Position numbers and translations under genes: made by a program. Of a stretch of 64,000 bases of DNA, positions 13,632-51,254 are shown piece after piece. The first letter of the stretch is position 1; each line of letters begins with the position of its first letter. Below the pieces are notes generated by a model. That model was given only the letters and a program-made list of their open reading frames with translations, ran no database searches and had not been told where the DNA came from. This DNA comes from Marsupella aquatica (taxonomy: Eukaryota; Plantae; Marchantiophyta): assembly GCA_973895155.1 (NCBI GenBank), contig OZ316896.1, positions 7,114,580-7,178,579 of the forward strand, in the 5' to 3' direction.

Positions 13632-13943
13632 GATCTTTATTTGGAATTGGATAGAGATGATCCCTGTCCAATTCCTAATAAAGATCGTCAGTATCCTCTG
13701 ATCGAACAAAGATGATCTTTATTAGGAATTGGACAGGGATCATCTCTATCCAAGTAGAGGATAGAGATCATCCCTATCCAAGTAGAGGATAGAGATGATC
13801 CCTGTCCAATTCCTAATAAAGATTGTCAGTATCCTTTTATCAAACAAAGATTATCTTTGTTAGGAATTGGACAGATATCATCCCTATCCAAGTAGAGGAT
13901 AGAGATCATCCCTGTCCAATTGGATAGGGATCATCTCTGTCCA
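13632..13943. repeat. Array of seven palindromes of about 25 bp, (TT)GGAYAGRGATSATCYCTRTCCAA, upstream of the ParB-MTase gene
   Basis: Copies start near 13647, 13729, 13759, 13787, 13867, 13897 and 13920. The first sits in a longer hairpin (GATCTTTATTTGGAA...TTCCTAATAAAGATC). Confidence 0.88.
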
Positions 13944-14002
13944 AACTGTGAGAGAACCTCATCTTTGTCGATTACAAATTAAGATTTTCCAAACTAATAT
14001 GC

Positions 14003-17000
14003 ATGGATGGGACTATTGCAGGGAGCGAACTACATGGATTGAAACCAGCAATTTCAGAATCATATTGCTCCGAGGGAGTCTTGTTGGAGCAGAGCAAACC
14101 AGATTTTTGTTGGGGCCTTGAGTTCTCTAGAGTTGATTTTGATTTCCTTAGCACGTCAGAGAGACGGGATCCCATTTTGTGCATAAAGGTCAGAACAGAA
14201 GATCAAGAGACTCTTGTACTCGGACCTGTAGTCTTCATTGGAATTGAAGGAAGAGGGTTTGTTTCCGTCATTCTTGAGCTCCATGAAAGGATACGATGGG
14301 TTAAGCTACATCTACCATCAAAGGCATATTCTTCAGAGTTCAATGTTGAGTGGTCTGCTGCTGGAGAACTTGGCATGATGGCAATGGGTTTTTTCCCTAA
14401 GTCGTATTCAACTCAAAAGGTGATTGTTGGAGTGAAGGGGATTCTTCCACTTGACATCATGTATGGGTTTCAATATGTGAAGCTGAATATCCATAAACAC
14501 CAAGGGAATTATACATTTCCGGTGACATGGATTTTAAATAATTTGCTCGACAAGGCAGGATTCTTATCTTCGGAATCAAGTGTTTGCCTTGACAAGCAAA
14601 TTGCATTTGCAGAGGAGTTTGCGATGGATAATGCAAAAAAGTGGGTAGAATCATTACCCCAAGCCTACAAATGTTGCACCAGTAGCGGTGAACGAGCTTC
14701 CAATAGTTTTTAACAACGAAGTTCCCAAAGAAGTTCCCAAACCTAGAAAAAGATCTCAGGAGACAACAACAGGGACTGCAGGAACAACGGCTGGGACAAG
14801 CACCAAACAAGTGGTAGGGAAGCGAAGACTAAGAGAGAGGAAGGGTCGTGAGAAAATTGAGACATTGCCGAAGGAACCCGAGAAGAAGCCTACTCGAAGA
14901 AACAGAAAACTGACAAGTCTCTTTTGCGATCAACCCCTACGGACGTACAGGTGCTCCCAGAAGATGAGGGAGACAAACTTGATGCCCCTGAGGAGAAGAA
15001 GGTCTTAGAAGGAAATGATGTTCTCCAGAGAATAGAGCAGTTCTATACTTTTGGGATAAATGAACTATTTTCTATTCCAGTGGAGAAAATTGTGCCTGCA
15101 CCTGCAAGATTGTGTTACAGGATGCTCAGTAGTACCCATGTGAAGCACATAGCCGAATCCATGGTCAAAAACCCTGGACATGAACCTCACGTCGCGGACC
15201 TGCTTCCTTATAGTCTGAAGCTTAGAAAGTTGCTCCATTTTGACAACACAAAGAACGACCGCAAAGACTTTCTTGCAGGAGTTAAGAAAGCCGAGATTGG
15301 TTTCTTTGCCATCAGTGGGCAACATTCGGCTAGGGCGGCCAAGTGGGTTCTTGAATGGGCCAAAACTGATGCCAAGCTCACAATGTTGGCAAAAAAGTTA
15401 AAATACAGGAAGTCTAGATTATTGTCAGACCTTACACCATTGGCTATATTGGTTGAGCACTCAATGAGATCAAATGCCATCAATTTGACAATGGTGTTTC
15501 AATCGTGCCCATGCTTGGGATTTTCCTGAACATGAATGGCCAACACACCCAACCAAGCTAAGAGCAAAACTTGAGCAAAAGGCTTTGCACAAACTTTGGC
15601 ATGAACCTAGCCCACGGCAGCAATACTACATGAGAGATGTGAACCCCATGAAGAAATATCGAGAACAAGAATACTTATCTAGCACTATCTCAGTACAACT
15701 TAGACAACTTATTGCTCAGTATAGACTAAGCTCACACCACCTTGAAGTAGAACAAGGGAGATGGAAGGATATTGACAGGAAAAATAGGGTTTGTCAACTA
15801 TGTGATAGCTCTAGTATAGAGAATGAATATCATGTATTCATTGCTTGCAAGTTTTATGAGGGGGTTAGGATGGCATCTCAAATCTTGGTGAAAGATTTGT
15901 ATGCATTGTTTGGTCTGCCCCCTCAGCAACTTGGAAGATATATCTTTGCGGTGGATAGGGAAAGGAGAATAGGTTTGGAAAATCTTTCAGGCCTCTCTAG
16001 GTCCATAGTTTCTTTGAGGACATAGTTGTCCTCTTCTGAGCAATCTCTTTTGGTTGCTCTTTTCTTTGATTGCATTGTACTTTACTTTTTGTGGCAGCTC
16101 CTTTGACTTTCATGGTCCCGGAGCTTATAATACATTACCATTACCATTACCAAAGATACAATTGTTCATGCAAGGAAACAATTCCTTGAATGCAGAGGAC
16201 CAAGAAAGCCAAAGCACGGGGACAACAAGTCAAATGCCTAAGAGAATCAAAAATTTCAGGTGAGAAACATTTTTCTTGTTTGGACAGAGATGGTCTCTGT
16301 CCAAGAGTGTGACCTTCCGTTACATTGATTTTAGTTCAATATATTTCTGGTTATGACTTGGATGGAGATGGTCTCTATCCAACAAGCAAGTGATAGTTTG
16401 TTGTCAAATCTCATTGATTGTAGATAACTTATTTTCCCCTAATTTTGACTGTAGGATTATTTGGCATTGGCAAGGATGACCATGGGGAGAAAAGACTTGA
16501 AAAATGTATATTGGTTGCTCTTTGCTGAGAATGATCTTTTCGAGCTCTGGCAATTAGTGTGCCAGATGTGGATTGGTGGACATCTTCCTGATGGAGCTGG
16601 TACACAGGGAAACAAAAGGTCCGAAAAGGGTATAACGGTCGCAATGTTTTGTTGTTTTGATGGTGAAATCTCAAGTAGAGATTTGACCAGAATTTTGAAC
16701 AAGGTGAAGTCAGGTCAGGTTTTATTGAAGAAGGATCCGACAAATAAGTCAGATGTTCTAGCAATGGAGGACTTTGCAAAGGAGGTGAAGATATTGATCA
16801 AACTGAAGTCTCTTATTGGAGATTACTACTTCAAGAAGGATCCGAAAAACTTCCCAGCAGATAGTGATTGGGTTAAAATAATTGAGGTCCTCCCATTGTT
16901 AGGTGCCGAGTCGGAGTTGAACAGGTGCCGAAGAGCAGCTGGTGAAGTATGGTTGACAAATTTATTGAAGTCTAATCATACAAAGGAGAGTGAGATATTG

Positions 17001-18827
17001 CCAATGACATTGGTGATGCGTCTAGATGATATTTACTGTCAGAAGTTTGGCGGTGGGACAAGTTCTTGGACCCAACCGTGGGTCACATTTTTTAGTAACA
17101 ACCTAATGAAGACAGTGGATCCGGAGTCGTTGGAAGAACAATCTCCAACATGGCCTCTTGCAATTGTTGATTTAAGCCGACTTCAACAGAAGGAGTGGAC
17201 CAAAGTAGAGATTTTGGTACTCTTCCAATACATAGTAGAGCTATCACGGAATCCCACCATTGTTGTGATGATAACTGTCCATCCAGGTTACCTTGTACTG
17301 AATGTCCTAAGCGCTCTTCGTAAATTAGGACATTCAAAAACTCTCACTATTCACATTGAATATGGGAGTTATTATCGAGATGATCAACCTCACCCTCATG
17401 ACTCATGTTGGAAGGGAGGAATAGAAGAAGTTATCTTTGCGAGAATTTCTCGCGAAGAGAACGTCAGCTGGGATGAAGTGTTCAAGCCCAACCAGATGAA
17501 GCCAAAATGGGTGTATGGTGAAAAGGATACTGATTTCGTGGTTGAGAAGGTCAAGGGAAAGGGAAAGGCAAAGGACGCGGACAAGGAGTCATTACATGTA
17601 GATCTAAGAAATATGATGACCCCAGAAGAGGCGGCAATACTTCTGCACATGGCACCTCGATTTGAGACGGTCAGTGCTCGGGGTGGGTGGGTGAATCCTC
17701 ACGCCAAACCCACACGGATGATCCAAAAGATCATCCAAACACTGTCCGAGCCGGGGGATTTGATTCTTGACTTTTTCTCTGGCGGTCAAGTGATGAAGGC
17801 ATCCCTTTTTTCTCAACGTGAATGTTTTGTTTATTGTGACTCTCAACATGAGAGACATTTTGTGGAAGCATAAGCTTCGTTCCTTTGTGAGAAGGTTCCC
17901 ACCATCAAAGATCGTTATGATTGCTATGTCGGTGGAAGTTCTAGACATTGGGAACCCTCTTCTGCCGCTGTTGCTATTGACGATGAATCAGATGGTGATC
18001 AAGAAGATGGAGCTGACCAATCAGTCAAAGACGATGGGCCATTGGAGGGGGCATACGTGAAGAATTTGGATGACCGAGTTGGCGAGGGTGAAAATATTGA
18101 CCTTGTGGAAGACGATATGATTGTTGGATCTGCACCTTGCAGTTCACCAATTACAGATGTTGCCCCCATGGGCCCCAACGAGGGCCAGTATGATGATAAC
18201 TTGGATAGAGATGGTCTCCATCCACAATTGCCTGGACAAGAGATGGAAGTTGATACGTTTGAAAAACTGTCTTCAAACAACCTTCTCAATCAAGGTGCGG
18301 AGAGGCATGGTGAGTCCAATGAACTCGACACATTGGGATTGAGACCACAACCCATCCAAATAGCTGACATTCCCGTGAATGAAGCAAGTGCATCCATGAC
18401 TGCTGACAACCAGGCAGGTGCTTCAATTTGTCCCGATACACTCTTTTCCACTTCTGATGACAAATTGGTGTTTGTTCGATCACAATCAAGAAGTCCCGTT
18501 ATCCTTCCACTCTCAAAAAAGAAAGGGAAGAGAGTAGGATCAACTGGATATAAGTCACTTGAATATGATTGTCGATGTTACGTGTGGAAAAGTGGACCCG
18601 ATGTAGGAACTGAAGTTGCTTTGGATGCTGTTCAATCAATTTTGAACAATGACTCGTACAAAAAGCACAAGAAAGATCCAACTTATAGAAGTGGAGAATT
18701 GGGATTGATAACTCCGGTTTGGTCTGCACCTTATTGGATAGAGGAGAGTACCTCCGATGTCAATTATGAGATCCAACAAGAGCTTGGTGATGATATCTTG
18801 ATTGATGAATATGGATCTCATTGTTAG
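14003..18827 (+). pseudogene. Large gene: unknown N-terminus + basic linker + ParB/Srx (DGQHR-like) domain + helical region + beta-class N6A/N4C DNA methyltransferase-like fold + acidic tail
   Basis: ParB-like segment FSIPVEKIVPAP..HVKHIAESMVKNPG..FAISGQHSARAA (15068-15340). MTase motif X-I NPHAKPTRMIQKIIQTLSEPGDLILDFFSGG (17694-17786). Phase-0 GT-AG intron at 16260-16454. ORFs 16461-17873 and 18042-18827 are in the same frame across one TAA. Two frameshifts, an in-frame TAA near 16240 and a LINE insertion disrupt this copy. Confidence 0.72.
15507..16152 (+). mobile_element. 5'-truncated copy of the same LINE inserted in the ParB-MTase gene
   Basis: Near-identical to about 10160-10805 (the ORF differs only at KKRI/KNRV and ERVRMT/EGVRMA) and ends in the TTACCA tail. 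Confidence 0.93.
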
Positions 18828-18973
18828 CCAAGATCTAGATTGAGCCATGTGACCTTATCAATTTGATATAATATAGTCTGTATAATTATACTTCAAGTTT
18901 AACAATTAGAGCATCAGTATCAATATCCATCTCCTCTTTACGGTTTCTCAATGAATACGGTCAGTATGCAGGA

Positions 18974-20087
18974 TTGACAGAGATGATCTCTATCCAAACT
19001 TCAAATGTGGTTTTTTCTCCAAGATTGGTATTTGTTGCACTTGCGGAACCAAGACCTTGTTCCATCAAGCGCAAATTGCTGATTTTGGATCTTAACAAAA
19101 TACTTTGGGATTTAGTTGAATTCCAAAGCAAGGGAAAATCCAGAAATGTTGTGACCCCAAGTGGAGTGCATTGGGATAGAAAAAATGGAATTAGTTGCAT
19201 GTATACAGAAAGGCCAGGGCTCCATGAGTTTCTAAAGTTGGTTTTTGACCGATTTGACGTTGCAATTTGGACATGTGCTGGGGTACAACAAACAGTGAAA
19301 ATGCTGAACATGATGTTCACTATTGAGGAGAGATTGAAACTTAAGTTTGTATTCACACAGGTGGAAGCCTTTGACACAGGCATTCAAAGGTGTGACATTA
19401 CAAATGGAAAGGCAAATCTGCTAGTGAAGGATTTTTGGGTGGTATGGAGTGGATTTGGAAATCTATATGATGAAACCAACACCCTCCTTGTGGATGACTC
19501 CCCCCTTAAGGCATTTGCCAACCCAAGCATGACCGGACTATTTCCAGTGCCCTACACGCATGCCAATCGTGGAGATAATTTTCTTCTTACAATTCTTTGG
19601 CCTTGTCTTGAGAAACTATCGATCACATGCAAGTGACATTAGATGTTATCTTCTTCTTAACTCTCCACTGTGGTCTCTATTGCACATAAAGAGAGACAAG
19701 GTAAAAAATGAAATTACTTATGATCAACTTAGTAAGAGATGCGCAACAAAAATTTGGAAGTCACAGTTTACGCATAGTGTGTTGGACCTCAATAGCAATG
19801 AGATTCCTTGGAACGTGAAGCATTGTATATGTAGTTTACGTCCTGAGGCAGAACTTGACGATGCACTTGTCACCTCACTTGCTAAAGCATTTGTAGGACG
19901 GGACTATTCAGGTCCGTATAGAGAAAATCCCAGACACTTTTTGCGGGAGATTATAGCCATTAGGAACAACACCACCAAGTTTCAGCTCCCTGAAGATAAA
20001 GGGACTTGCAACCGTGACACTAGGGTAGATAGTAAAGGAGACAGGGGCACGTGCTCAAATACACATTGTAAGGAGCACTTTGTTTAG
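18974..20087 (+). pseudogene. FCP1/SCP (NIF) family HAD phosphatase-like gene with C-terminal extension, frameshift near 19625
   Basis: KLLILDLNKIL, RPGLHEFL, FDVAIWT, LVKDF and NTLLVDDSPLKAFANP are the NIF-domain motifs. The true start is uncertain. Confidence 0.8.
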
Positions 20088-21599
20088 AGATCTGACTCAT
20101 GTTAAGCCCCTTAGATAGAATAAATACATTTTAAATTTGGAGATAATTGTATTAATATTATTTTATAATCTATATGGAGTTATGTCATTTTGTTCACACA
20201 TATTCAAGGGCTTCTTTGTGCTGAAATGTTTTTATAAGTATGATCTCTATCCTACTATTCTTTGTGAATTAATAAATAATGATCTCTATTCTATTATTCT
20301 TTGTGAATCAATAAATGATATAATATGTATTATTTATTAATATAATACTAATATGATTTGGCCTATAAAGTGTACATTTAGAGACCAAAAAGTGTACATT
20401 TGGGGACATGAAAGTGTACATTTCAAGATTGATTTGTGAACAAAAGAAAATACACTTTTAATGAATAGGCTGATGTTGGGACACTCGACCTCCGTATAGC
20501 AATGCAAACAACCCACATAGTGAGCACACATGCGGACTCTACAAATCCTATGAGTTCTATTGTAATTCCTTGTTGGAAACATGTATCACAGTGTCTATAC
20601 AATCAGTCATAGGTCTTAGCCGCAATGAAAAGGCTTAGCCGTAGTCACAAGTCTTACCTGCAATGGATCACAGGTCCACAAACAAGCTCCAATCTGCTCC
20701 CTTCAGCTATGGTAGTTGAAACAATATCAATTGTTGCTCCTGCACGAGTAGCCTGCAGAACAGATGCAATCGCGTTAGGAGGTACAATGAATACTGCCAT
20801 AGTTAAAGTCCTCCGTGCTTTTGGAAGTTTTGGGATGGAAAAGAGTGGTTCCAAATGCAAGTGCTTTGATCACTAGCCAGAAAAATCTATCCGCGAGCTG
20901 TCACCGCCGTTCCACAAAAACCATTCGCTTCCGCAGCCAACAATGGTAGGCACTCAACTTGATGACCTATCGACAACTGAAGGACATCCCGACAATCCTC
21001 ACGGCCTCCCGATGCTCGGTATGGGTGCAGCAAAAGGGAAAAGACCACAACTGTCACCAAGACTGTCATCCGTCACCTTCAAGAAACCCCAACCTCCGAC
21101 TCCTCAAACTCCAACTAGCTCCTCACGAAGGTTTCAACAGCCACGCCCTTCTTCGCCCTACCAGCCAAAACCTAAATGTCCTTAAACAGATCGAGCAGGA
21201 GCTTCACAATGTAGACTGCAAGCCCAAGGAGCATCACCGCAACTGCCTGAACTCTGCTCCTCGAGAGAAAAAAGAAGCACATTACGCGCGGGAAGGGAAG
21301 TGGGCAACACAAAAAAGGAAAACCCTACGTAAAACCCCAAACCTTGGACCCCTCACGTTCTAAGTTGATGGCAAACACTCCAAAGTCACTCCCAAAGTGA
21401 AGTTTAGTGCCACTTAAATACCAAATTTGGGGACTTAAGTCATAAAGGGGAGCCACTCAGCCTTACCGTTTGAGTGAGCCGTTGAGTGTCACCCAAAGTG
21501 GGACAAAGCTACAAAGTGTCACTGCATGGCCATCTTGGGTATGTAACTACAGATTTTGGATGGTGGGGATGGACTCCATCCAATGGTGCTTTAGTGAAG

Positions 21600-21880
21600 C
21601 ATAAGCCCCTCACCCCCTGAAGTTGTAACCGGCCCCCACCCCCCCCCCCCCGCCCTTGATATTTAAACCCCCCTAAACCCCTTTTAGTGACCCCCCCCCA
21701 CACCCTTGACATATAACCAGCACACACTTGAGATATAAACCCCCTTTACTGACCCCCACCCCCTTGAGACCTAACCGGCCCACCCTTGACATATAAACCC
21801 TCATAAACCCCCTTTAGTGGTGACCCCCCACACCATAGATCTGCCCACCCATAGATCCTAAACCCCCCTAAACCCACTAT
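21600..21880 (+). repeat. C-rich subterminal repeats (CCCTTGAYATATAAACCCC..TTTAGTGACCCCCC)
   Basis: Several imperfect copies a few hundred bp inside the CACTA-type end. Confidence 0.55.
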
Positions 21881-22221
21881 GGAGTATATGAGACATTAGG
21901 GCATCTCATCGTGTACTGAGTTTGTAAGTGTTCAATATAGCGGGATGTTGGTAAAGAGGTCGCCAAATGAGTAGTGCAACCCCCCTATATGCCCATTATC
22001 AAATTAAAGCCCACAACACAATGCAAGTACAACCATCATGTGCTAGAGTGTGCACAATAGGTCACAAAGTAGGGTGGAAACTTTTCCTAGTCTTATCCTA
22101 AACCAAAAAGCACTCGCAGTCGTTTGTAGTGTTCATGTGAACCGGTGCAATGGTTCCGAGTCATTTAAAGTTGCAAAAAAGGACTTAGTGGCCTTAGTCC
22201 TATAAGGTTTGGTCTAAAATG

Positions 22222-22239
22222 CCCCGGTTTCTACTAGTG
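22222..22239 (-). mobile_element. CACTA (En/Spm) terminal inverted repeat, right end of a large element
   Basis: The reverse complement reads CACTAGTAGAAACCGGGG. Copia RT starts abruptly at the next base (TAT TTACAAGGCA). No matching left end is seen in the window. Confidence 0.65.
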
Positions 22240-23838: not shown

Positions 23839-23925
<87 letters not shown>

Positions 23926-37290: not shown

Positions 37291-37850
37291 GGAACAGGCA
37301 AACAAGAAACTGTATGTTGTTACCAGGAAAAAAAAGCTTGTACCAGGGGAAAGAACACACTATGAGGAGTTTAGAATTGTAAAATTTGGAGTTAGTCCAT
37401 TGCGGTTAGGAAGGATACCTTGTCATGAATAGCTGAACCACATAATAATTGAACCTCATATCCCAACATAGACAAGGGGGTGCATACCTAAAAATGTGAA
37501 GGAATGCGCACAAAAATGGTCACCACAATTGGCAACAAAATATATGAAAATAATACAAAAGGAATGCAACACAAAACTTTATGGTATTATATGGTCCAAA
37601 ATAAAAGTGAACAACGTCTTGACTAGTGCCTGGCGCTAGTTTACCGGTATTTAAGGAAACAAATAGTTGACGTTGACAACATCAAGCACAACACGATGAT
37701 ATTTCACGGTGTAGCCTAAACAACAAAATTATCAGCGCCTGGCGCTAACAAAAACATGCCGCGACATAAATAACACTATACCGTTGACATACGACAAAAT
37801 CAATATAATCGTTTGGACCGATAGGGCAACCTAGATCATCATGATTCATG

Positions 37851-39982
37851 CTATAAACCATGAGCATTTTGCCTCTCTAATATGAGCCAAACCTCTCCAA
37901 GAGTGAGAATTGGTTGGTTGGTCAATGTAGATTCCTCAACGTCTAGTTTGAAAACGGTAAGGAAAATCCAATACAAATGTTTGCAAGGCATATATGGATG
38001 TTTCCGAGAATGTCGCCAGTAGAAATCCTCACAAGAGCAAGTGGGGAAAATGCAAATTTGAACAAAGTAACAATTTGGCGTCCGCATATTTTTGTGCGTT
38101 TGCACCTTAAACTACTTTCCCCATGCATTCCCAATCGCGACATCCCACTCTCCCTGAATGGACATCGTCTCTTTTTTTGCAGACGCAATTCTGTTCATGT
38201 GACCATGGGTAAGAGTTGACCGAGGAACCATATTCCTCCCATTCCGGCTTCAGAGACGAACATTGGGTTTGAGAAGATTCACATTTTCTGGAAAGATATT
38301 GACATTGATTCAAAGATCAAAATCTGATGGGGGTCTAGTTGTACGTTCACTTCCACGGACTAGGGAGATTCTGTTCTCAAGAAGATATTGCATCTTGTCT
38401 TCCTTTTAAAATGGGAAGAACATCAGGGAAAGGGGGCAGGTTCAATACACCTTGACGCGGGCGGCTTCTATAACATGTATTGTTTGGGCAAAACCAAATC
38501 ATTTCGGTTATGGGTTCCCCCTTGAAAATGCGTTGTCCTTTGACAACAATGCCGATAACACCATGTGGTGAGGGAAATCCAACTTTTTTTACACGATTGC
38601 GACACTCGTCTCTTTCAGAATTACGGGAAAACGATCCGTTGCACTGAGGACCAACGCCAAATTTTGAAGTTCGACATAATTGCCATGCAGCTGGAGCGAC
38701 CTCGGTTTCACGGACAGGACACTCTTGTAACGGTTGCTGAAGCACAAAGGGAGCAGTCTGGGGAAGCCTTGTTGAACGCGTTTGGTCTCGAGCAAGAGGG
38801 ATATTGAAATTGACATCTTCTCCACCGCCCAAAATGTCACTTCTAGATAGATTAACAACAAGAATAACTTGAGGCGTGGGGCCAGGGATAGCATCAAACA
38901 TCGTGCGATTAAGATTCTTCCTTTTCATCGATCTAGTATTGGGCGAGGTGACAAGGATTTTATCATGCCTATGGGAGTCTTGTGGCGAGATATTCCCAGA
39001 TGCATGTCCTTTCCTCTTCAAAGATTTGGTGACAACGTCTCCATTGAGAGGTGCCCGTCTCTCCAAGTCAAACTCGGCAGCGTTGGACAGTAGCATATTC
39101 ATTGCATCTTCAAACAACTTGGGGGAGCCTGCCTGGTCCGCTGATCGGAAAGCGAGTTCCCAAATCGTGGGACCTTTACCTCTATGCAACCCTTTCTGAT
39201 ACGCAGTGTAAGCAGCAACCTGAGAAATAGCTTGATTTGGTCCATTTCACATGCCTCAAAGAGCCCAACCTTTTTCTTCATTACCCATGCTTTCATACTT
39301 GCGTGCACGGACTCTGATCCTGTACAATTAGGAATCTTAGCCCCTTCTTCGACACTCTTGTTCTGCAATTACATAGAATAAATTGCCTGTTACGCAACCA
39401 AAAACACTAGCGTCGGGCGCTAGAGAAGTGGAGTCGGTACCTAGAAGTAAAAACTGGCAATGTAGATTAAGGGACAACTTATTGTGTCCTATTGTGTCAT
39501 CTGACAGTTCGTGTAAATAATAGCGCCAAGCGCTAGTATTAAAGGATGCTAGATAGTATTGTAATATTTGAAGTTTACACTATCGATACAATCATTATGT
39601 AATGAGAATATAGCAGAGCAATACCTAAAGAGCGGAAAGGAAAGTAAAACAACTTACCAAACGAATAAAATTTCCCCATTGCCTCCACCTGACGACCCAC
39701 CATGAAATCCAACTCTGAAGCATCCGGAGCTTCCCGAGGACACAATTACCCGACTGCCACCACAAATCAATCTCCCTTGAAAGTCTGTAAGCCTCTACAA
39801 ACATGGGGGCATTTCACATCTTATATATCCCAAAGCACGCAATGCTCTGCTTGACTCTCTTCAATCACTCCTTCAACTGAATGGCAATGGAAGGCTTGGT
39901 AGAAATGGAATGCGTCAGTTCACTCACGCTCTGGGTTTGGATGCCCTCCAAAAAAGATGTTTCGGACTGCCAGCCATCCAGC
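37851..39982 (-). pseudogene. MULE-like transposase, 3' half with SWIM zinc finger
   Basis: AGWLAVRNIFFG..DAFHFYQ, SWISWWVVRWRQWG, an intron at about 39365-39657, GSESVHASMK, and C-terminal TCSCEDF..PCKHLYWIF (SWIM CxC..CxH). Confidence 0.65.
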
Positions 39983-40185
39983 GGGGTAGCGAGGATCATC
40001 AGTTATAAGCCACTGATAACTGATATCAACGGCTGTTATCAGTTTTTCCGCTAATTTTTTTTTGTATCTCAGCTGAACAGCTGAGATGATGACTTTGCAT
40101 TTCCACGCATCTCAGCTGACCTTGCCGAGATCAGCGAGCGGACAAAAAAAACGGGAAAAAAAATTTTAAAAATTATTTTCTCGAA
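39983..40185 (+). mobile_element. One arm of a foldback/MITE-like element (starts GGGGTAGCGAGGATCATCAG)
   Basis: About 200-bp inverted match to 51540-51765; both ends are flanked by GC. Confidence 0.75.
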
Positions 40186-40189
40186 TTAC

Positions 40190-42366
40190 CTCCACAAATG
40201 CAGTTGGTGCATTTGCCAAAGTGTAAGGTCGAGCTTCCAAAACTTGAATTGGCCATTCTTCAGATGTATCCATAAGGAATGCTTGTTTCTGTAATTTCTC
40301 AACCAATTCAATTCTGAATTTTGGCATCCACTACCTGCATATCATATTACCTCTTCTCCAAGAGATAAATTAAGTCATGAGAAAGATGTCCTTTCTATAA
40401 GAGGAATGGCCTTCCCTCCCATATCAATTCACCTTTCTCCCATGGTCATAAAAGAGTTAAAATCAGAGTAGAGATAACTTACTCCTAAATGGAATTGGCC
40501 AAACTCCACTTACAATGGTTCCTCTCTTTCTCCCTTGAAAGTCTCTCTTAAAATCCAAGGTTTCTAATTTGGTCATTCACTGCCTGAAGGAAAAATCATT
40601 CCTGAATCTGTTCCCCGGCAGCGGCGCCAAAAATTGTATGTAGTATCACACTAGGGACATAAATAAACATTTAAGATCCAAAACTCGGTATTCGTTCCCA
40701 TGGAAGAACATGTAAGGAATAATTTTCTATGATTTAGCACTTATGAATGAATAAGGTGACAAAAACACAAAGGTGGGCCTTTTACTATGATTGCTTAGCA
40801 AGGCATAGTTTTGAATGTTTGATTAACATTGTAAATCAAATTAACAAATGGAAACAATTAATAAAACATAATAAAAATCTTGAGGTATGGTGAGGGAGTC
40901 TGGAAAATACCAAGGTAACTTCTCAACAACACTTAATTTGAGATGATTTAAGGTGAGGAATCCGCAAGGACATTTCTGGAATGGAATGTTTTACTAGGAT
41001 GGTTTATTAAAGTGCCGTCAACACATCTCAACCTTTCCTTCCAAGGTACTAAGTTAGGATTAACAACCAATCACTTCAGCATCCAATCGATACTTTGAGT
41101 CACGAATATCAAGCACCATCATCAACAACTTAAAGTCACAGGTAATTGGGTGATAACATTCTTTGCACCTCGTGCACAAGCAATGTTATGCCAAAAACAT
41201 ATGCATCAAGAACTCAAGAATGTATAGCCTTCACCAATTAAGGAATCTCTCTCCACACATTCAAAAGATTCATTAATCACAAAGTTTTACTTCTCTGGTA
41301 TGAAATCTCAACATTCAAACACAAGGAAGGGGAAGAAATTATTTGTATTAAGTACTCATCAACAACATAGAGTACTTGTTACAAATGGAGGTAACAAAGT
41401 TGCAATCTTGCAACTAAGCGATCACACAAAAAGTGACAGAAATTCAACTACATATAGGCTAGCACGAACTAAAGGAAAAAGAGATAATGAAAGGACATGC
41501 CCTTTCATATCTTAAGGGTCATAAACTAAAGTTTAAAAGTATGAAAATATGTTACAGGAGTACTCAACGTTCACTAGAATGTTGTTGGAATGAAAAACTA
41601 ATCAAAAATGATCTTTAGTGTAAACTGGAGTGAAAGTGTTTTTGCACTTTTGCTGTAAAACTAACAAATAACAATGTTGTCTGAATTTTAATTTCTAACA
41701 TAAAGTTCAAAATGAGGTGAAACTTTTCTAGGTGGAAGATTTACATACATGCTACATGCTGGAAAACTGTCAGACTTTTCTGAGGTGTCTAAGTGCCTTA
41801 ATAAAATCGGTGAGAAGTGCTGTCGGATTAAAAATACACTTTTCCGGAAAATTTTCCAAGTGTCGGAAGCGCCGTTGCGCAATCACGCCACTGCAAAACT
41901 AAAAATTATATAACTTCTAAACGACATGTCGGTTTTGGCTGATACTTTCAGAGGAGTGTCTGTTAGATAAGAGCTACCTCCTGAAAAAGTATGAGACTTT
42001 TCTAACTATGAGAACTATTTAACAAAAATGGTGGAGATTGACTAATCCTGACTCGAAGGATGGAGTAGGTCAATCCTCCTGAAGTAATGCTAACTGGTCC
42101 GGTTGTTGAAAACTCCTGTGTGGAAACTCTCTTGCATAGCTTCTTGAATTACATCCATGTCTTGAGTGTGATGCCAATAGAAAGGTAAAGACTTCCGCTG
42201 TCGTTCAATATCCAGAACAAGAAGTAGTCTTTGGTGTAGCATGACATTAGGTAAAGTGTTCAGTTGATCTAAATTGCTACAAAAAGTAACTATACTGCAC
42301 CATTGACTTAGAAAAAGTTCAAAATTTATAATTTTCTATCATTTCTAACTAATGTATTGTATTACA
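40190..42366 (-). mobile_element. Truncated Athila-like element: 1.7-kb 5' LTR (40639-42366) + PBS + short internal stub
   Basis: On the minus strand the LTR reads TGTAAT...GTGATACTACA and is an inverted match to the solo LTR at 45925-50454. The PBS follows after 9 nt. Confidence 0.8.
40612..40629 (-). promoter_or_regulatory. Primer-binding site, Athila tRNA-Asp type
   Basis: TGGCGCCGCTGCCGGGGA, one substitution from the canonical TGGCGCCGTTGCCGGGGA. Confidence 0.85.
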
Positions 42367-43501
42367 GTAGCCCCAGCGATCGACAGCATGCGCCCTGAAA
42401 ATTCACTCTCCAGATCTTCTAGTAATCTTTTGATACTGTATTAGCGTTCGGTTGTACCACTTATTTCCCTTCTAAACCTCCATCACGCCTCAACCTTCAC
42501 TTGAAATTTCAAAATCTCATCTCTGCAACAATCATCATTCTTCGTTGAATATCATCCATTTACCACAAACTTCATAGCGCCCTCATCTCCTCCTCGTTTT
42601 ACTTCCAAACTCTTTCTTCCTTCGCGAATACATTCCCCACTTTCAGTTCATTGATTTCCTTGCTCCCTAACTCTCTCAAAATTGCTTATTATTCCCTGAT
42701 TGTCTCCTCGTTCCAAATCAAATCCCCTCTTGATCATCCCATCTGTTCCGTCTTGTTCCTTACTCCCCTTCGGCTGATCGCCTTGCCATCTTCGCTTCTT
42801 CTTCCCACTCCACTGATTCTCCCAAACTCAGCCTCTGCTCAACTCTCCATCGGATCCTTTCAGTCTTCTATTTCTTACAATTTTTGCTCCCCGAACTCAG
42901 CTTTAAAGATGTCGCATCCGGAATTCTCCTTCAATCTTTAGCTTTTCCCTCCTTTCACTTGGAGAAAGATTCTTCACAACGACCATGATCTACCTGTTAT
43001 CCCTTTCTCAGACCTTAGCATCACCTCTCCCTCACCTCAATCATTCGAAAAGTCCTTATCCCACAGCAATCACCATTCGCAGCTTCACTCTGTTCACTCT
43101 AATTTCAATCACACGCCTCAGCCTTCCTCCGAAAATCCAAAACCTCAACATTCAACGACCATCATCCTCGGCTGAATTTCACCCAATCCCCCTGAGCTCT
43201 CTCGCGCGCCCCACTCCACAAGAATTTTTCTAACTGCCCTTTATTCTTTCGGCCATTTCTCCTTCCTCCTGTTCCTCCTTGTAGCGCGCTCCACTTCAAA
43301 CTGACCCTTATGATCTACGTGCTCACGGGATGCCACGTGTCTCAACCACAATAATTGCCCTATTAACTTTTAGTCTAAAGCTTCATTCTCCACTCTTTAT
43401 TCCTCTTTTGTCTCACTAACCTTCAACTCAAGTTCAGTTTCCTCTTTGTTCCTTTCCTTCGCAATCAGAGTACTACTACATTCTGAGCCGAACAAAGCAA
43501 G

Positions 43502-45605
43502 TTGACTAGATCCAACACACTCCACTTCAATTGTCAAACATTTTTCCCGACGACACCGGACAAGGAAGACTACACACTCAAGAATCAAAAGCGAGCGAAA
43601 CAATATGTCTATCGTTTCTTCATGCACATGGAGATTGTGAAGCTTGACTATTTTTGGGCTTACCCAGCTGCTTTCCATAATTGGGTCATCTGCGCAGACG
43701 GAGATATTTTGGCCAAACTATATTCGATGTATCCCGTTGAGGGAATCCTTCCGTCGAGGAAATTGTTAGAGTGGGAGAGAATTCACTGCCCCTGGTATCT
43801 TGACACCGACAGATGGGATTCTCCTTTTGATGACACTGAGAAGGACGCCTTCCATAAACTGTCCAAATCCCAAGTTCCGAGACAATTTGTCTCCGACATG
43901 AAGCAAGGAATTGAGGGAGACATCAACGCGTCGACAACTTAGTTGCCAAAAAAATTCAAAACCACTGTGGTTCATGTTGATCAAAGCTGAAAACCAAGAG
44001 CCAAAGCCAAGGCGGTTGCCCCTGTGGCAAGTGCTAGTGCCAAGTCTGGGAAAAAACGTAAGCTACACCTCCTTCTTCCGACTTCCTTCTTTGGTAGCGC
44101 CTGGCGCTATTATGTGTCGTGAGTTTAATATGTTTTATTTCCCAAAATTAATGTGGGTGTTTGGCCAGCGCCTGGCACTAACACTCTTTATGTGCTTGAC
44201 ACTATTTTTGGTAGGTGGGCAAAAATCTGATGCCGCCACGGATGACACAAAAGTAGATGCAACACCAGAAGTCTCTGAGGCCAACACTGGTGCCAATCCA
44301 GATCGACCCCATCACCCCCGTTGAGAAGGGGAAGGTTATAGTTCATGTGGATGCTACAAGCACAAAGAAGAAGAAGAAAAGGACCATCGATGTCTGGGAA
44401 TCATCACGAGATAATGCTTCTGGGGCCGGTATCCAATGGGATGTGGGGAATTTCAAGACCAAACTCGGAAGACACTATATGGTCAAATCAAGCTTGGCAC
44501 AATTCATTGATAGTGCATTTAGTAAGGAAGAGAAGCCAGATTGGGTTGCAGACGCTGAGAAGTGGGGTAAGGATTTGATCAAGTTGGGGTGTAGAGATAA
44601 AGGAGTCATTAGAGGTGGGAAGGAAGGATCATTTGGGGTGAATGCGGGTTTCATCTATCCCCCAACTGGTTTGAAACCCACAATTGTTGACCGGTGGGTC
44701 CCGAAATGGAATGTAACAGATCACACAGCAGCCGAATCATTTTTTTGGGCGATGGATCCTTTCCTTTTGGATGATGGCATGCTCGCCATCTTATACTCGG
44801 ATGACCACGATCAGATTTTCCAGGTCATTTCTGCATGTTAGCAATCCAAGAAGTTCATGTGCATCAATACGCACAATGTTTTCATGTCTGTCCCAATGTA
44901 CAGATCCAAGACAGATGTCCAGGTAAATGTTCTCTCTGCATATAGCTATACTAGCGCCCGACGCTAATCTTTATTTATTAGGAGGTCTTCTCGCATGACT
45001 AAGAGATTTTTAAAATCCAGTTGGTTTGTCTACTTTTGCAGGTCTTCACTCTAGACTGGATTATTTTGTCGAGTTTCTTTTAAGGGAAAGGTCCCAAAGG
45101 ATCCAAGGTTCAAGCCGCTGTCTAGCGCTGAAGATCCTTCAATCTCAAACAATTGGGCTACAATCTTTGAAGGAAGATCATTGTCCTAAACTCCATTTTA
45201 CTGGGAATGCCCGACTACCGGTTGGTTTTATGCAAACTGTCCTTGAACACTTTACGATACCTAAGGATATTGTAATTGATTGGACCGTCGGCTCAGGTAG
45301 TACGTTCATTGCTGGGGATTACTCGGGCCATTTTGTCATTGGGTTAGAAAATCGTTGGGAGTTTGTTGAGACCGCTTCAAGGATTTTTTTGGACCTCATT
45401 TCTCCCAAACCTTTGGAGACACACCTCCCCCTCCTCAAATAACTGGATGAAAAAAGAAAGATAGACTTAGATCTGTCCTCAACTTTGATTCGGACGAAGA
45501 TGATGGGACGCCAGAAGATGATGTTCCTGAGGATGTCAATAACGGTGGGAAAGAGGAAACCCGACATGAAGGGTCAACGAAGGATAGCGAAGAGTCTTCC
45601 AAGTA
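43502..45605 (+). pseudogene. Multi-exon gene with beta-class DNA amino-methyltransferase-like fold and acidic tail
   Basis: Motif IV position GFIYPPTGL (44647-44673), FLLDDGMLAILY, and motif X-I RLPVGFMQTVLEHFTIPKDIVIDWTVGSGSTFIAG..VIGLE (about 45210-45350). GT-AG introns at about 44058-44214 and 44923-45041. Confidence 0.72.
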
Positions 45606-45924
45606 ATTTTTGTCTCTTGTAAGCTCCTTTATCCTTTCAATTGTTGGCTAACCTTCAATTCCACCCGTTCTATTGGTTAAGTACTTACTTCCTCTTTCTC
45701 TTCCGTTTCTCTTTTGAGCAGGTCATAATGGAACCAAAGAAAACGGTTTCAACTCCGAAGGAAAGTGGCTCGAAATGTAATCATTACTCCCAAGAAGCCG
45801 TTTGTGTTGCCATCATACACTGAGAATGTCACGAGGAAGGCAGAGAAATTTAGGATGCTCTGCTGGGAAACAAAAGGACTTAGGCTTCTTAGGGGAGTAG
45901 ACAGAAAGTTCATGAGGAACCCCT

Positions 45925-48900
45925 TGTAATAGCTGTCTAAATTAGAAACTTAGAAATAATGAAAACTTTTAAAATTTTTGTAGTTAGAAATAGATTAAAC
46001 ATAGCCAATTAATCTACTTTTAGATATAAGTAAGGTTAAGACTTAAGTTAGGCGGATTAATGGATAATACCCTGAGTAATTAGGTAGGGGTGAGACGAGC
46101 CAGAAGAAACTACTATCGATGTTCTCGAAGCACGAAAGGAAGATTGGTGCTGCCACGTTTGACCGTGGGCGCAACGAGCATTTTGGCGTAAAATCGCAAC
46201 GGCGCTTTGGAGCAAAAGCGCAACGGCGTATCGGCGGAAAAGCGCAACGGAGCAAAGGCGCAACAGAGCGAAAGCGCAACGGCGGATCACTTGGCATTGC
46301 TCTCTTTGGATCGATAATTGGTGACAACGCCTTGCATCTTGTTACTATGGCAGACGAAGGGGGAGAGATGACTGCAAGAGGAGTTCCTCTACCTAAGGCC
46401 GTCCCTGTGACATACCCTACGATGAAAAGAAGCTTGCACGTTTTGAAGGAAGCACTGGCGGTCATGCACCTGAGTAAATTACTCACTCTGCCTTGGTCTG
46501 CAACTTCATTGAGTTTTCTGAAGGATTTCAGTGATGGGGCACGAATCGAAGTCGGTATGGTGGGAACTGCTAGGGCGAATCCAGAATTTTGGACTCTGCA
46601 ATTTGTTGCTGATGCTTTCGACTGTCCCGCCGAAGGCGATAGCTTACACTCACGACAAGGGGAGATTGCGAGGCCTTATTTTTCTGGAACTCGAAACGTT
46701 CGCCATGGATGGAAAATGGACCAGTGCACCGATTATACTCTCAAAATCATTTTAGAGTTTTTGATTCCAATTCTCCATCCCATCCGGCCACATATGATAC
46801 CTGTGTCACTTGCCAATACTATTGTGGCAAGTTGGAAGGGAGTTGCTCAGATAAATTGGGCCTTGTTGCTAAGACAGGTTATTTTATCTCAAGTAAAGAA
46901 GGTGAAAATGGACGAGTTCACTACTCTCCCTTCTTATCTTTGCCAATTGTACTTTCATGGGAATTGCTTACTTCCAGGCGAACAGGAGGAGCGGATCAAA
47001 CTGCTTGATGAATTTGATCTTAGTGAATCAGGAAACGAGGATACTGAAGGAGAAGATGCTGATGAAGTCCAACCGGAGGTTCCCCCACCTATCTGTTCAG
47101 AGGTTACCCCTCTTACCCATAGAGAACCACTTGTGGAACCCAGAAGAACCTCTTCACCAATTCCTGATAACCCACTATCCCCTTTCGAAGATCTCAATCA
47201 GGATAGAAGACTTTACACCCCCCTCAATTCCAATCTTGATGAGTATACATCCGAGCCAGAACCAGTAGGAACGTCCCCACCTTCTGTACCTGTAGTTGAG
47301 ATATCTATCCCTAATACTCTTCGATCACCCATAGTCCCAACTCAGAATTTATCTATAGACAGCTTGACCCCTTCTATGAGATCCCGTAAGAGACCCTTCA
47401 TGTTCAGCAAACCAACGGCTGATGAACTGAGAGCAGAATCTAATCAGCAAATTATCAATAAGTTAAGCAACTTATTGATCTGTGAACCTGAGGAGATAGT
47501 TGACTCTTTTGAGAGGTTAAGAGCAGCCTGTGTAACTCTGCCTGAACCTAGTAGTCCCGACTCTCCATACTCTCCCACCCAAGGTCCTACTCAGTTCTAT
47601 CCTAAGATGATGGAGCTATTTTGACCCACCTCCAATATTAGGGTTACAAATACTGCTGAAGCTGAACCAATGGAGGACAATGATGCATCACCCAGGTTAG
47701 AGCTCCAACAGACACTATCTGCTTCCCCAGGTCACTCTGCTGAACACTATTCTACTCTTGTTAATAAAATGACTGACATGCTGGAGTGTGATGAGAGACA
47801 CTTAATTGATGTCTTGGATGATCTTTTGCATAAGACATCAGTTTTACTTACTCGAGATCATCATCGAGAATATTGTGAGGATTTAGTCCACAGGCTTACA
47901 CAGATTTTCGGATGCAACCCAAAGCAAGTTTATTATGCCGTCCGTTATCATGCCTCAGCCTCTGGCTCTCCCATTTACTATTCTTCCCCTTCTTCCAGCC
48001 ATTCACCCACCTCTCCTTACAGTCCTTCGAATCAACCAGACCAGCTCTATCCTAGTTTTCCAGAACCTGAGATCACCCCTACAGGTGAACATCTTGCCAC
48101 TTCTTATCCTGACACCCTTCCACTAGGTCAAGATAAATCCTGCCAGGTCAGTTTCATCCATACATTGCATATTGACCCTAAGACCCCTCAGGAGAATATT
48201 ACACAATTTGCTGAGTTTGTTAGAGTTTCAGACCTTAGAACTCCTCCCATTTTTGAGTTTTGGCAGTACTATCATAAGAAGAGAGTTGAATGTCTCTATA
48301 TCCTGAAGCTTCATCTGAAGGATGTCACCCGCCTAGAGATAGCAGAGATGGATGAGATCTGGACAGAGGCTAAATATTTTCGCCCTATTCTTGGTGTCAT
48401 AATCCTGGTTGGACACATTGTATTGGAGAATGGAGATCTGGCCCTGGCATACTTCGGGAACTTACCTGCCTATATATGTCTTGGAATTCATCATCAACTT
48501 TTTGAGACAAACCAACAAACGATATCAGGTCGACCATGGTGTCCTACTAGAGAAACCTTTTATTGTTCAACAATTTATCTCACCAATTGCTGAGAGTCAG
48601 AGAATCTGGAACAACATCACTTCCCAATGGTTGACTGATTACACCTTGAAATGGCAAGAACTGTTACCTCGTGTCACCCCACTTCTATCACTTGCCAAGG
48701 ACTCTGACACCTTCATCAACAAGTTTCCACGCAACTACCATACTACTTGTTGTAGTTATGACTTGGTCGGCATCTATATGCAAGCTAGCAAGGTGAACAC
48801 TATGTTTCACAGGAGACTACTTCCCATTCTAAATGCTAAATGACAAATCAGGTCTCTTCCATTTGCTCGACATGATACACAGGCTATGGATTTCCCCCGA

Positions 48901-50454
48901 GAGGTGATTCAAACCGAGACATTCAGGAGTTTTCAACAACCAGACCAGTCAGCAATACTTCAGGAGGATTGACCTACTCCATCCTTCGAGTCAGGATTAG
49001 TCAATCTCCATCATTTTTGTTAAATAGTTATCATAGTTAGAAAAGTCTCATACTTTTTCAGGAGATAGCTCTTATGTAGCAGACCATACCCTGAAAGTAT
49101 CGGCCGAAACTGACATACAGTTTAGAAGATATGGCATTTTTAGTTTTGCAGTAGCGTGAGTGCGCAAAGGCGCAACGGCGCTAGTACTCCAAAGCGCAAA
49201 GGCGCAACGGCGCCTCCAACACTTAGAAAATTTTCCGGAACAGTATATTTTATATCCGGCAGCACTTTTCACCTATTTTATTAAGGCACTTAGACACCTC
49301 AGAAAAGTCTAAAATTTTGCCAGCATGTAGCATGTATGTAAATCTTCCACCTAGAAAAGTTTCACCCCATTTTGAATTTTATGTTAGAAATTAAAATTCT
49401 GATAAACTCACTATTTATTAGTTTTACCACAAAAGTGCAAAAAACACTTTTACTCCAGTTTACACTAAGGATAACTTTTGGTTAGTTTTTCATTCCAACA
49501 ACATTCTAGTGAACCTTGAGTACTCTTATAGCATATTTTCATACTTTTTGCTTTAGTTTATGACCCTTAAGATATGAAAGGGCATGTCCTTTCATTATCT
49601 CTTTTCCCCTTTAGTTTCTGCTAGCCTACATGTAGTAGAGTTTTTTACCACTTTTTGTGTGAAGAAATTTCATGAGCGCTCAGTTGCAAGATTGCAACTT
49701 TGTTACCTCCATTTGTAGCAAGCACTCCATTGCATATGAATACTTAATACAAAGGAATTCTTTCCCCTTCAAGTCTAAATGAATGAGAAGTTTGGATCCT
49801 TGAAGTAAAATCATTGTGATTGTTAAATCTTTTGAGTATGTGGAAATAGATTCCTTGTTGGTGATGTTTCACATATTCCTTAGTTCTTGATGCATAGTTT
49901 TTGGCGTGACATTGCTTGTGCACGGGATGCAAAGATTGTTACTTACCAATTACTTATGGCTTCAAAGATTATGATGGTGTCTCTTATTTGTGACACAAAG
50001 TACCGATTGGATACAGAAGTGATTGATTACTAGTCTCCACTCAGTACCTTGGAAGGAAAAGTTGAGACATGTTGACGGCATTTTAGTAATCATCCTAGTA
50101 CCGTAATCTTTTCCAGAAATGTTCTTGCGGATATACCACCTAAATCATATCAAATGAAGTTATGTTGAGGAGTCACCTTGGTTGTTTCCTAACTCCCTCA
50201 TCATACCTCAAGGTTTTTATTGTGTTTTATTAATTGTTTCCATTTGTTAATTTTATTTTTAATGTCAAGCAGACATTTAAAACTATGCCTTGCTGAGCAA
50301 CCATAGTAAAAGGTTCAACCTTTGTGTTTTTTTTTACCTTATTCATTCATAAGTGCTAAATAATAGAAAATCATTCCTTACATGTTCTTCCATGGGAACG
50401 AATACCGAGTTTTGGATCTTAAATGTTCATTTATGTCCCTAGTGTGATACTACA
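45925..50454 (+). mobile_element. 4.5-kb Athila-like solo LTR with 5-bp TSD CCCCT
   Basis: CCCCT|TGTAAT ... GATACTACA|CCCCT. Both termini match the PBS-flanked LTR at 40639-42366. Confidence 0.88.
46347..49000 (+). pseudogene. Long ORF inside the LTR (plant-mobile-domain-like N-terminus, Pro/Ser/acidic linker, helical C-terminus)
   Basis: ORFs 46119-47624 and 47670-48593 share a frame across one TGA, then frameshift to 48409-48843. Likely start MADEGG at 46347. Confidence 0.7.
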
Positions 50455-51254
50455 CCCCTACATAGATGATGTTTCTAGAAGCAAGTATATTGATGACAAG
50501 GCAGAGTCGACCGGCAGATCTCATAGCTCCCAGAATGATAGCTCAGAATCTGACACTGAAGGGTAGCAATTTTCTCCTCTATCAACTGTACCTCTCAACT
50601 GTATGCGTATGCCCTTGGTTTTTGTTAGCGCCTGGCGCTATTGAATTTATTAAATTGGAACTGAGTTTGAGGGAGATTGCCACTTCCATTCAATGGTTAA
50701 TGGGTTTGTCAAACCTGGTAATGGGGTCTTTCATAACGTCCTTTGTGTGGGTTCCTCTCCTTGTTTAACTAGCGCCCGATGCTCCCCAAAATGGTACCCC
50801 CTAAAAAAATACGTTGGAAGTTTCCGTTTGAAATTTGTCGTTTCCGTCCAACGGTCATTTGGCTTTCAGTCGGAGACTGGTACCGAGAAGAGGACCAATA
50901 ACGGGAAATTCAAGTGCCTTATAAACATACTATTGTGTCTGGGATATCAAAACATTATCAGTTTCGCACATTGCTTGCTTCTTTCAAAGTCCATTGCACT
51001 CATTTTTCTCCTTCTCGATTCCATGGAAGGCCATTTTGGAAGCTCCAATGTAGGGCCACATTCGGATCTTAATAACTCTGGTATTGTTAGAGATATGGGA
51101 ATGGAGATTGGCGCAGATAGGGTTATTGAAGGAGATCACGTTCTTCCCGTTTTGACTCACTTTACTTCTTTCGAGACAAGGACTGAATCTGTTGAGACAG
51201 AAACCACAGACTTTGTCAATCGCCTCCCATCTTGCGTCAGATGAGTAAAGTTAC

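Follow-up and report, generated by a model that had tools for sequence, protein, structure and literature searches.

Accessory genes that combine ParB-like and methyltransferase-like parts, and inverted-repeat arrays adjacent to ParB genes, have already been published for transposons of brown and red algae. In the brown alga Ectocarpus, the DNA transposon Sola1-1_Ec32 encodes a single protein with a ParB-like and an N4/N6 methyltransferase domain, for which binding to, and modification of, the transposon itself have been proposed (PMC12477816). The accessible part of a preprint on Bostrychia describes the Plavaka accessory proteins PAG2 (PF01555 plus SET) and PAG3 (ParB plus a 2OG oxygenase), a mobile cassette common to CACTA/EnSpm-lineage and Mutator elements, and tandem inverted-repeat arrays that adjoin the ParB gene and were proposed to be parS-like self sites (bioRxiv 2025.02.11.637652). 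In the VANDAL/VANC system, according to the sections of the report at hand, family-specific motifs lie in introns and intergenic DNA and were expanded by tandem duplication (PMC5735166). Phage proteins that fuse ParB_N to N6_N4_Mtase are also on record, in the part of the source that was accessible (PMC4738411). The beta-class fold, finally, occurs in eukaryotes in MpDN4MT1 of Marchantia, which has no extra domains, and in the bdelloid N4CMT, both of them active SPPY host enzymes. Green algal relatives are said to have been described by Iyer in 2011. A preliminary description of the DNA analysed here presented its arrangement as a candidate new system; that idea had already been published for the algal transposons, and the arrangement here is a land-plant version of this proposed design. 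The literature searched contained no such version, the Ectocarpus and Bostrychia supplements could list plant relatives, and the excerpt of the Apopellia genome paper held no relevant passage.

The window, a stretch of 64,000 nucleotides from the liverwort Marsupella aquatica, contains two regions of interest, A and B (Table 1). Contigs of other copies indicate that both are multi-copy, and each is a decayed copy of such a plant element, likely a DNA transposon. The scanned stretches of regions A and B gave no Pfam match to a transposase, and no TnpA was seen near A, so both are putative transposons. Region A has a single CACTA end, with no left end or pair of target site duplications found, and its link to that end, at 22,239, is plausible; what we take to be a Copia-like remnant abuts the same end. 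In region B, the SWIM finger scored E 0.031, below the cutoff, and the motifs of the transposase gene that presumably represent the MULE/DDE region had no Pfam match; the SWIM-MULE transposase of the preliminary description is a probable one. An inverted pair at 39,981–40,167 and 51,545–51,767 was considered as MULE TIRs and rejected, because the pair does not enclose the transposase half and 51,228–51,765 is skipped by contigs of 3 of 4 runs; an inversion between the two arms was ruled out on the same evidence.

Table 1. Features of regions A and B (positions within the window)
Feature	Position	Strand	Remarks
Palindrome A cluster, 7 copies	13647..13944		Upstream of ORF1; partly a tandem duplication of a 138-bp unit
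ORF1, 253 aa	13952..14713	+	ATG at 14,006; no family match
Gene A, ParB-like N-terminal part	14861..15508	+	SGQHS at P-motif position; upstream frameshift near 14,890
LINE 3' fragment inside gene A	15509..16150	+	99% identical to 10,160-10,805
Gene A GT-AG intron	16260..16454	+	2 copies of palindrome A
Gene A, helical and beta-class methyltransferase-like domains	16455..17873	+	Motif IV IVDLSR; motif I LDFFSGG
Gene A, acidic linker and conserved C-terminal domain with no assigned function	17874..18827	+	Palindrome A at 18,201
NIF/FCP1-like HAD phosphatase-fold ORF	18872..20087	+	DLNK motif; tail with frameshift; carries a copy of palindrome A (18,973)
CACTA-type end, CACTAGTAGAAA	21640..22239	-	Own subterminal TAAACCCC repeats
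Palindrome B, two copies	37624..37747		Downstream of SWIM gene
3' half of decayed, probably MULE-type transposase gene	37850..39976	-	Ends in SWIM finger
Gene B, 5'-truncated pseudogene	43487..45924	+	N-terminal exon; motif I IDWTVGSGST; acidic stretch
Gene B introns	44,058-44,214; 44,923-44,981; 45,603-45,721	+	By eye; 2 B sites in the first, 1 in the second
Inserted LTR-type element	45925..50454	+	TG...CA; 5-bp TSD CCCCT
Element B continuation after insertion	50455..51227		Carries palindrome B (50,626) and a decayed copy of it (50,770)

Gene A has a beta-order amino-methyltransferase fold, in which motif IV precedes motifs X-I, as the preliminary description had proposed. Its ORF matched PF01555 above the gathering score (E 3.7e-6) in the motif X-I part only, and the fold was recovered by Foldseek (E 2.6e-6 to M.RsrI) and VIA (Z 13.6, rmsd 4.8 over 193 residues, to M.MboIIA), which places it, like MpDN4MT1 and N4CMT, among eukaryotic representatives of the beta class. 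Gene A and its NIF neighbour comprise a ParB-like part, a helical domain, the beta-class fold, an acidic linker and a NIF-fold partner. Contrary to the preliminary description, the protein does not end in an acidic tail, since a conserved C-terminal domain follows the acidic linker. In the partner, DLNK stands in place of DxDxT, the canonical HAD phosphatase motif, and in some relatives the NIF/FCP1-like domain is fused to the methyltransferase-like domain. This copy of gene A is a pseudogene broken by a retroelement: the methyltransferase-like segment terminates at a premature stop, and the LINE fragment is skipped by contigs of 3 of 4 runs.

Family A, to which gene A belongs, is multi-copy (217 matches), its named members are from liverworts, with genes of the family in Riccia sorocarpa and Calypogeia fissa, and its layout is a ParB-like domain, a helical domain, a methyltransferase-like domain and an acidic linker. 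The ParB-like and methyltransferase-like pieces lie in one ORF in the intact relative P0157, which shares 33% identity (E 2e-24) with the ParB-like part of gene A, and an Atlas structure search with residues ~100–346 of the relative P0153 led to ParB_N and HTH_ParB clusters (TM 0.52–0.60). The ParB part of the family had no Pfam or PDB sequence match, and with the P0153 AF2 model, whose pLDDT was below 50 over most of this part, Foldseek and VIA gave no ParB chain. The ParB-methyltransferase cassette of the preliminary description is supported for family A, through P0157 and P0153, and not for region B, where no ParB part was seen in the window.

Both of the motifs expected of active proteins are altered across family A. 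The catalytic (D/N/S)PP(Y/F/W) form of motif IV was found in none of 49 sequences; the PP pair is missing from all of them, Asp is present in 45 and the pattern is D[FL][STG][RH], in agreement with the non-canonical motif IV described earlier. Most of the 70 sequences compared at motif I retain DFFSGG, which falls short of the usual glycine pattern. In a register set by eye, the ParB P motif GxxR reads GxHS or RxHS in all 8 covering sequences, with Ser replacing the Arg that is required for NTP binding. With the catalytic motif IV and the arginine of the ParB part both missing family-wide, the catalytic marking suggested in the preliminary description is unlikely for A; its broader suggestion of self-recognition fits the palindromes described below. 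Searches for homologues of gene A gave 3 matches of near-equal length and no longer homologue among 3,976 candidates. Locus scans of viral contigs yielded nothing for gene A or for the SWIM ORF; those of prokaryote genomes yielded none either, and those of metagenomes gave one locus from 280 pattern matches.

The ORF of gene B also matched PF01555 above the gathering score (E 4e-8), again in the motif X-I part only, so that retention of motifs X-I holds for both genes. The match covers the C-terminal half, with motif I DWTVGSGST aligned to DPFMGSGTT, and the N-terminal half had no match; a candidate motif IV, FIYPPTG, was located by eye. Gene B did not match the family A profile significantly (best E 0.048 over 15 helical-region columns), and by profile the two genes are unrelated. 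No longer homologue was found among 279 candidates, which is weak evidence. This copy too is a pseudogene broken by a retroelement, the LTR-type element, which is skipped by contigs of 3 of 4 runs.

Each region carries its own palindrome. The two palindromes are unrelated, and each is absent from the other region, from the inserted retroelements and from the rest of the window, confirming the exclusivity noted earlier; they are family-exclusive, internal and present well above chance. Palindrome A is a 25-bp sequence, TTGGAYAGRGAT-N-ATCYCTRTCCAA, with 11 copies at ≤3 mismatches, all within 13,647–18,997, compared with a mean of 0.0 copies at ≤4 mismatches under a Markov null and a best palindrome family of ≤1 copy across 30 shuffles. 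Palindrome B, TAGCGCC-W-GGCGCTA (15 bp), has 8 copies at ≤2 mismatches within 37,624–50,640 and a decayed ninth at 50,770, and shuffles gave a maximum of 2–4 copies. The earlier count of 9–11 copies per region therefore holds for A and is too high for B unless the decayed copy is included.

The placement of the palindromes mostly in introns and non-coding DNA was borne out. Nine of the 11 A copies are clearly non-coding, including those at 16,280 and 16,358 in the gene A intron; the copy at 18,201 lies in the coding acidic linker and that at 18,973 in the opening part of the NIF ORF that follows. Five of the 8 B copies lie in GT-AG introns, which occupy 10.7% of the core (P 6e-4; 0.01 by clusters) according to intron calls made by eye, without RNA. 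Two of them (39,408 and 39,521) are in a transposase-gene intron (39,657–39,363), and one asymmetric variant is common to this intron and a gene B intron, which ties the transposase gene and gene B to one family. Half-sites of palindrome A have five invariant or nearly invariant positions, with 22 of 22 halves agreeing at the G/A core. In palindrome B half-sites, all five C-to-T changes are at CG or CHG, consistent with host methylation of these sites. Contigs of other copies show palindrome A units gained or lost in the intron and the upstream cluster (joints 16301>16383, 16326>16280 and 13799>13897), resembling VANC target arrays as described in the available text. The only related locus found, L001 (1.8 kb), has an intron at the same position as that of gene A, without palindrome A, and has no array of its own.

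Both elements in this one window thus have family-specific internal non-coding motifs, as VANDAL/VANC elements do. VANC differs in its DUF1985/DUF287 domains, which were absent by Pfam from the ORFs scanned here, in its 8–9-bp motifs, and in that demethylation, a prediction here, has been demonstrated for it. Sola1-1_Ec32 shares with family A the presence of ParB-like and N4/N6 methyltransferase-like parts in one protein; however, it is predicted to methylate and is given no binding site in the text available, whereas family A has lost its catalytic motifs, has a NIF partner and is accompanied by defined palindromes. In Bostrychia, ParB and methylase are in separate genes rather than fused, and the arrays adjoin PAG3, whereas here sites are also dispersed in introns and no SET or 2OG domain was found. 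The phage fusions have the same two folds in the same order and are the nearest structural neighbours of family A, although they are intronless and prokaryotic. When language-model features were compared, the ParB-like part of a family A relative came closest (0.96) to DUF3723, a cargo of the large mobile elements of fungi known as Starships; this is a lead without an alignment, and the portions of the Starship literature consulted revealed no link of DUF3723 to palindromes.

The exclusive, internal and intron-enriched palindromes are compatible with self-recognition. Our preferred reading, to which we assign a probability of roughly 55%, is that a catalytically dead methyltransferase-like accessory protein binds its private palindrome to keep its own family expressed. 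In this model the protein would act as a dimer whose helical (HTH-like) domain, next after the ParB fold, contacts both half-sites, much as ParB recognises parS. The inactive methyltransferase domain, with its SAM loop kept, would provide binding to DNA or to a cofactor, and host factors able to reverse or prevent 5mC silencing would be drawn in by the acidic and NIF parts, in the manner of VANC. Extrapolating from layout alone, gene B would play the same role. The self-recognition role is likely anti-silencing, and binding to the palindrome is predicted.

Alternatively, the palindromes could be docking sites for a transposase or TnpA-like factor, with the methyltransferase-like genes as unrelated cargo. 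Maize TnpA sites are ~12 bp long, the same length as a palindrome A half-site, and 4 of the 8 B copies fall within the transposase gene or immediately 3' of it. The accessible part of a 2026 preprint also indicates that Mutator transposase and TnpA activate cognate copies via clustered motifs. However, TnpA binding is reported, in the text available, at element termini, whereas the sites here are internal; the CACTA end bears a different repeat, TAAACCCC; no TnpA or transposase domain was found near A; and three B sites are in introns of gene B. We consider docking unlikely on balance.

That the proteins are active non-canonical amino-methyltransferases, marking their own palindromes with 4mC or 6mA, is improbable. 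The motif IV Asp and the SAM loop are kept in family A, gene B keeps GSGST and a candidate PP, and eukaryotic beta-class 4mC enzymes are known; nevertheless, no family A sequence has the PP pair seen in the Marchantia TSPPY, and the ParB arginine was lost in parallel with the methylase motif. Gene B leaves this explanation more room than gene A does. It is very improbable that the palindromes are neutral by-products of local duplication or tiny insertion with no protein partner. A single cluster built by tandem duplication does hold 7 of the 11 A copies. The remaining A copies and those of B, however, are flanked by unrelated sequence, so that the motif itself appears kept; in addition, their core is conserved, they are enriched in introns and each type is strictly confined to its own region.

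Extending the preferred reading, a phage-derived ParB-methyltransferase fusion may constitute a second, VANC-independent anti-silencing system in early land-plant transposons of different superfamilies, a wider proposal that we regard as tentative and rather doubtful. As a multi-pseudo-enzyme, composed of a dead NTPase fold, a dead methylase and a degenerate CTD-phosphatase fold, it would read long family-private palindromes in introns, and its ParB-like module would be one component of a wider set of self-recognition tools that the algal PAG genes and Starship DUF3723 also share.

Binding of their own inverted repeats by ParB-like accessory proteins has been proposed for algae, in the parts of those reports available, and the window adds a precisely defined candidate site of 25 bp, together with an intact natural protein related to gene A and named liverwort relatives, which brings the question within reach of straightforward binding assays and methylome profiling. 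A gene annotated as a methylase in these plants can belong to a family made up of pseudo-enzymes, and such an annotation does not by itself indicate 4mC or 6mA. If the preferred reading is true, self-recognition here would work through a system that is related neither to VANC nor to TnpA, and sites as long and private as these might find use in targeting.

The fold attributed to gene A, the methyltransferase-like gene (PF01555) of region A, was borne out by structure searches. In the predicted model of its 472-aa piece (mean pLDDT, 58), a helical domain precedes a beta-class amino-methyltransferase fold. Foldseek matched the model to M.RsrI (E = 2.6e-6), with 38 matches at E ≤0.001, and VIA matched it to M.MboIIA (Z = 13.6), the best 20 rows all being beta-class, type III Mod or MT-A70 enzymes. 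A profile search with gene A detected 217 relatives at E ≤0.001; the named ones belong to two liverworts, Calypogeia fissa and Riccia sorocarpa, so that the source of the window is likely to be a liverwort-like plant. In family A (gene A and its relatives), motif I, DFFSGG, was kept in most of the 70 rows aligned there, whereas motif IV was D-F/L-S/T/G-R/H and PP occurred in none of the 49 rows aligned at that position. The non-canonical motif IV seen in the single copy thus extends across the family, indicating that its degeneracy is old and not a result of decay in this copy. Gene A itself is a pseudogene: a LINE fragment that other copies lack is inserted in it, its reading frame is shifted and it contains premature stops.

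The upstream exon of gene A aligns with the N-terminal end of relatives in which the methyltransferase part is present as well, and in one relative, P0157 (1,009 aa), a single ORF spans both gene A pieces. For another relative, P0153, the Atlas put residues 100–350 among ParB_N and HTH_ParB clusters (TM, 0.52–0.60); our own structure model of this ParB-like part was too poor to support the placement. With the register set by eye, all eight sequences covering the P-motif position carry Ser, where ParB has the Arg described as required for nucleotide binding. Comparison of Atlas language-model features between the same P0153 residues and fungal DUF3723, whose gene is conserved as cargo in fungal Starships, gave 0.96. 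This suggests that DUF3723 may itself be ParB-like; the word “ParB” is absent from the text of the Starship preprint. Downstream of gene A lies a NIF/FCP1-like ORF (E = 2e-13), a domain that some relatives carry in fusion with the methyltransferase-like one. Its motif is DLNK in the window and, in five relatives, DVEG or DTEE, which departs from the canonical DxDxT.

For gene B, the corresponding gene of region B, the methyltransferase-like assignment held for motifs X-I-II (PF01555, E = 4e-8; M1.HpyAVI, E = 0.0055), to which its support is limited, and not for the N-terminal half, which had no match. The family A profile did not detect gene B, and no relatives were found among 279 candidates, which is weak evidence. 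Gene B has lost its 5′ end and is interrupted by an LTR-type insertion, with a CCCCT duplication, that is missing in other copies; on these features it is also a pseudogene. The SWIM gene, divergent in orientation from gene B, resembles by its motifs a MULE transposase reduced to its 3′ half. A weak SWIM match was its only supporting domain match. The two genes are linked by their proximity, similar contig cover and palindrome B, which occurs with both and of which both carry one and the same asymmetric variant.

Palindrome A (25 bp, two 12-bp halves) occurs in 11 copies and palindrome B (15 bp) in eight plus one decayed, so that the 9–11 copies per region of the preliminary description apply to A and not to B. 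Each site is private, as first claimed: within the window, palindrome A was absent outside region A and palindrome B outside region B. In 30 Markov shuffles, no palindrome family exceeded one copy for A or four for B; the shuffle-tested statistic also equaled 7 in the first 13 kb of the window, most likely owing to the 181-bp tandem repeats there. The palindrome A cluster arose in part through tandem duplication. Among contigs of other copies, palindrome units were gained or lost in the gene A intron and upstream cluster, at joints that are short-sided and suggestive only. The sequences flanking palindrome B show essentially no relationship to one another (of 36 pairs, one reached 0.5), and five of its eight sites lie in GT-AG introns, called by eye, to which 10.7% of the core belongs (P = 6e-4, or 0.01 when clusters are counted). 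All seven changes in its half-sites are transitions, and the five that turn C into T are all at CG or CHG, a pattern that would be expected with host methylation of the sites.

One CACTA-type end, plausibly that of region A, has subterminal repeats that differ from palindrome A; no matching left end was found within the window and no transposase in the flanks scanned. Regions A and B are likely to be DNA transposons, and both are multi-copy. In two runs at 80% likeness, 2,996 and 7,824 contigs were obtained for the region A stretch and 4,712 and 7,635 for that of region B, many of them 90–99% identical in each case; the two stretches include retroelements, and depth does not equal copy number. 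The window is repeat-dense and eukaryotic, with LINE and LTR elements throughout.

Positions of features in the window
Feature	Position	Remarks
LINE 5′ region, two inverted copies	2,810–3,602; 5,976–6,838	with 181-bp tandem repeats
LINE	6,655–10,806	almost intact; tail (CCATTA)n; fragment 99% identical to it inside gene A
Palindrome A copies		7 clustered upstream of ORF1 (frame upstream of gene A); 2 in gene A intron; 1 in coding acidic linker; 1 at NIF ORF start
ParB-like part (counterpart of P0153 residues 100–350)	14,990–15,508	
Family A conserved C-terminal domain	18,309–18,827	ends IDEYGS; no credible Pfam name
3′ end of cassette A	20,230–20,460	two palindrome A half-sites (20,240; 20,279); separate AAAGTGTACATTT repeat
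CACTA-type end	22,239	
278-aa ORF, minus strand	28,537–29,373	hydrophobic segment; host-gene look among repeats; no Pfam match
MITE-like sequences, related, inverted	39,981–40,167; 51,545–51,767	left interrupts transposase gene; right skipped in other copies
LTR-type ends, inverted	40,639–42,118; 48,924–50,454	83% identical to each other
Short GCGCAACGGC repeats	41,870; 46,170–46,290; 49,154–49,212	
Palindrome B copies	50,626 (one copy)	others: 2 downstream of SWIM gene; 2 in SWIM-gene intron; 3 in gene B introns
Open plus frame, 196 codons	50,654–51,244	minus frame protein-like, stop-interrupted; no Pfam match for either
Ty3/gypsy-like element	54,024–64,000	2,039-aa open polyprotein; terminal repeat 631 bp at 100% identity; apparently young, nested in older one

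We propose, with a probability of roughly 0.55, that the accessory protein binds the palindrome of its own family through the helical domain behind the ParB-like fold, the predicted reader of the site, and that it would protect or activate its own copies non-catalytically. The main rival, in which a transposase or TnpA-like factor reads the palindromes, is stronger for palindrome B and is unlikely overall. TnpA sites are terminal according to the controlling-elements preprint, whereas the palindromes here are internal and intronic and grow through duplication; this layout is closer to that described for VANC targets (PMC5735166). That the proteins are active non-canonical methyltransferases is improbable, PP being missing from motif IV in family A. 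Least probable is that the palindromes are neutral repeats, duplication within cluster A notwithstanding.

Binding by the accessory protein would fit a design already in print. The Ectocarpus TE paper (PMC12477816) describes a 1,104-aa protein on a Sola element that joins ParB-like and N4/N6 methyltransferase parts, as in family A, and suggests that proteins of this type may constitute a new class of self-modifying accessory proteins. The Bostrychia preprint (bioRxiv 2025.02.11.637652) describes Plavaka elements in which a PF01555 gene occurs together with a gene for ParB, the latter adjoined by inverted-repeat arrays, and homologues on Mutator and other elements. Related literature includes PMC4738411, PMC8885841, a Marchantia 4mC preprint and a retrotransposon DAM preprint. 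Given the Ectocarpus and Bostrychia descriptions, the design was already known as a hypothesis, and the claim of a new system was abandoned. Our literature search found no land-plant form of the ParB and methylase transposon accessory design, no family-wide catalytic loss reported for such proteins, and no report of a genome with two families that differ in their intronic palindromes. The feature is real and belongs to a known, itself still hypothetical, kind; on this search, what would be new here is its land-plant form, the family-wide catalytic loss, and the presence in one genome of two families with different intronic palindromes.
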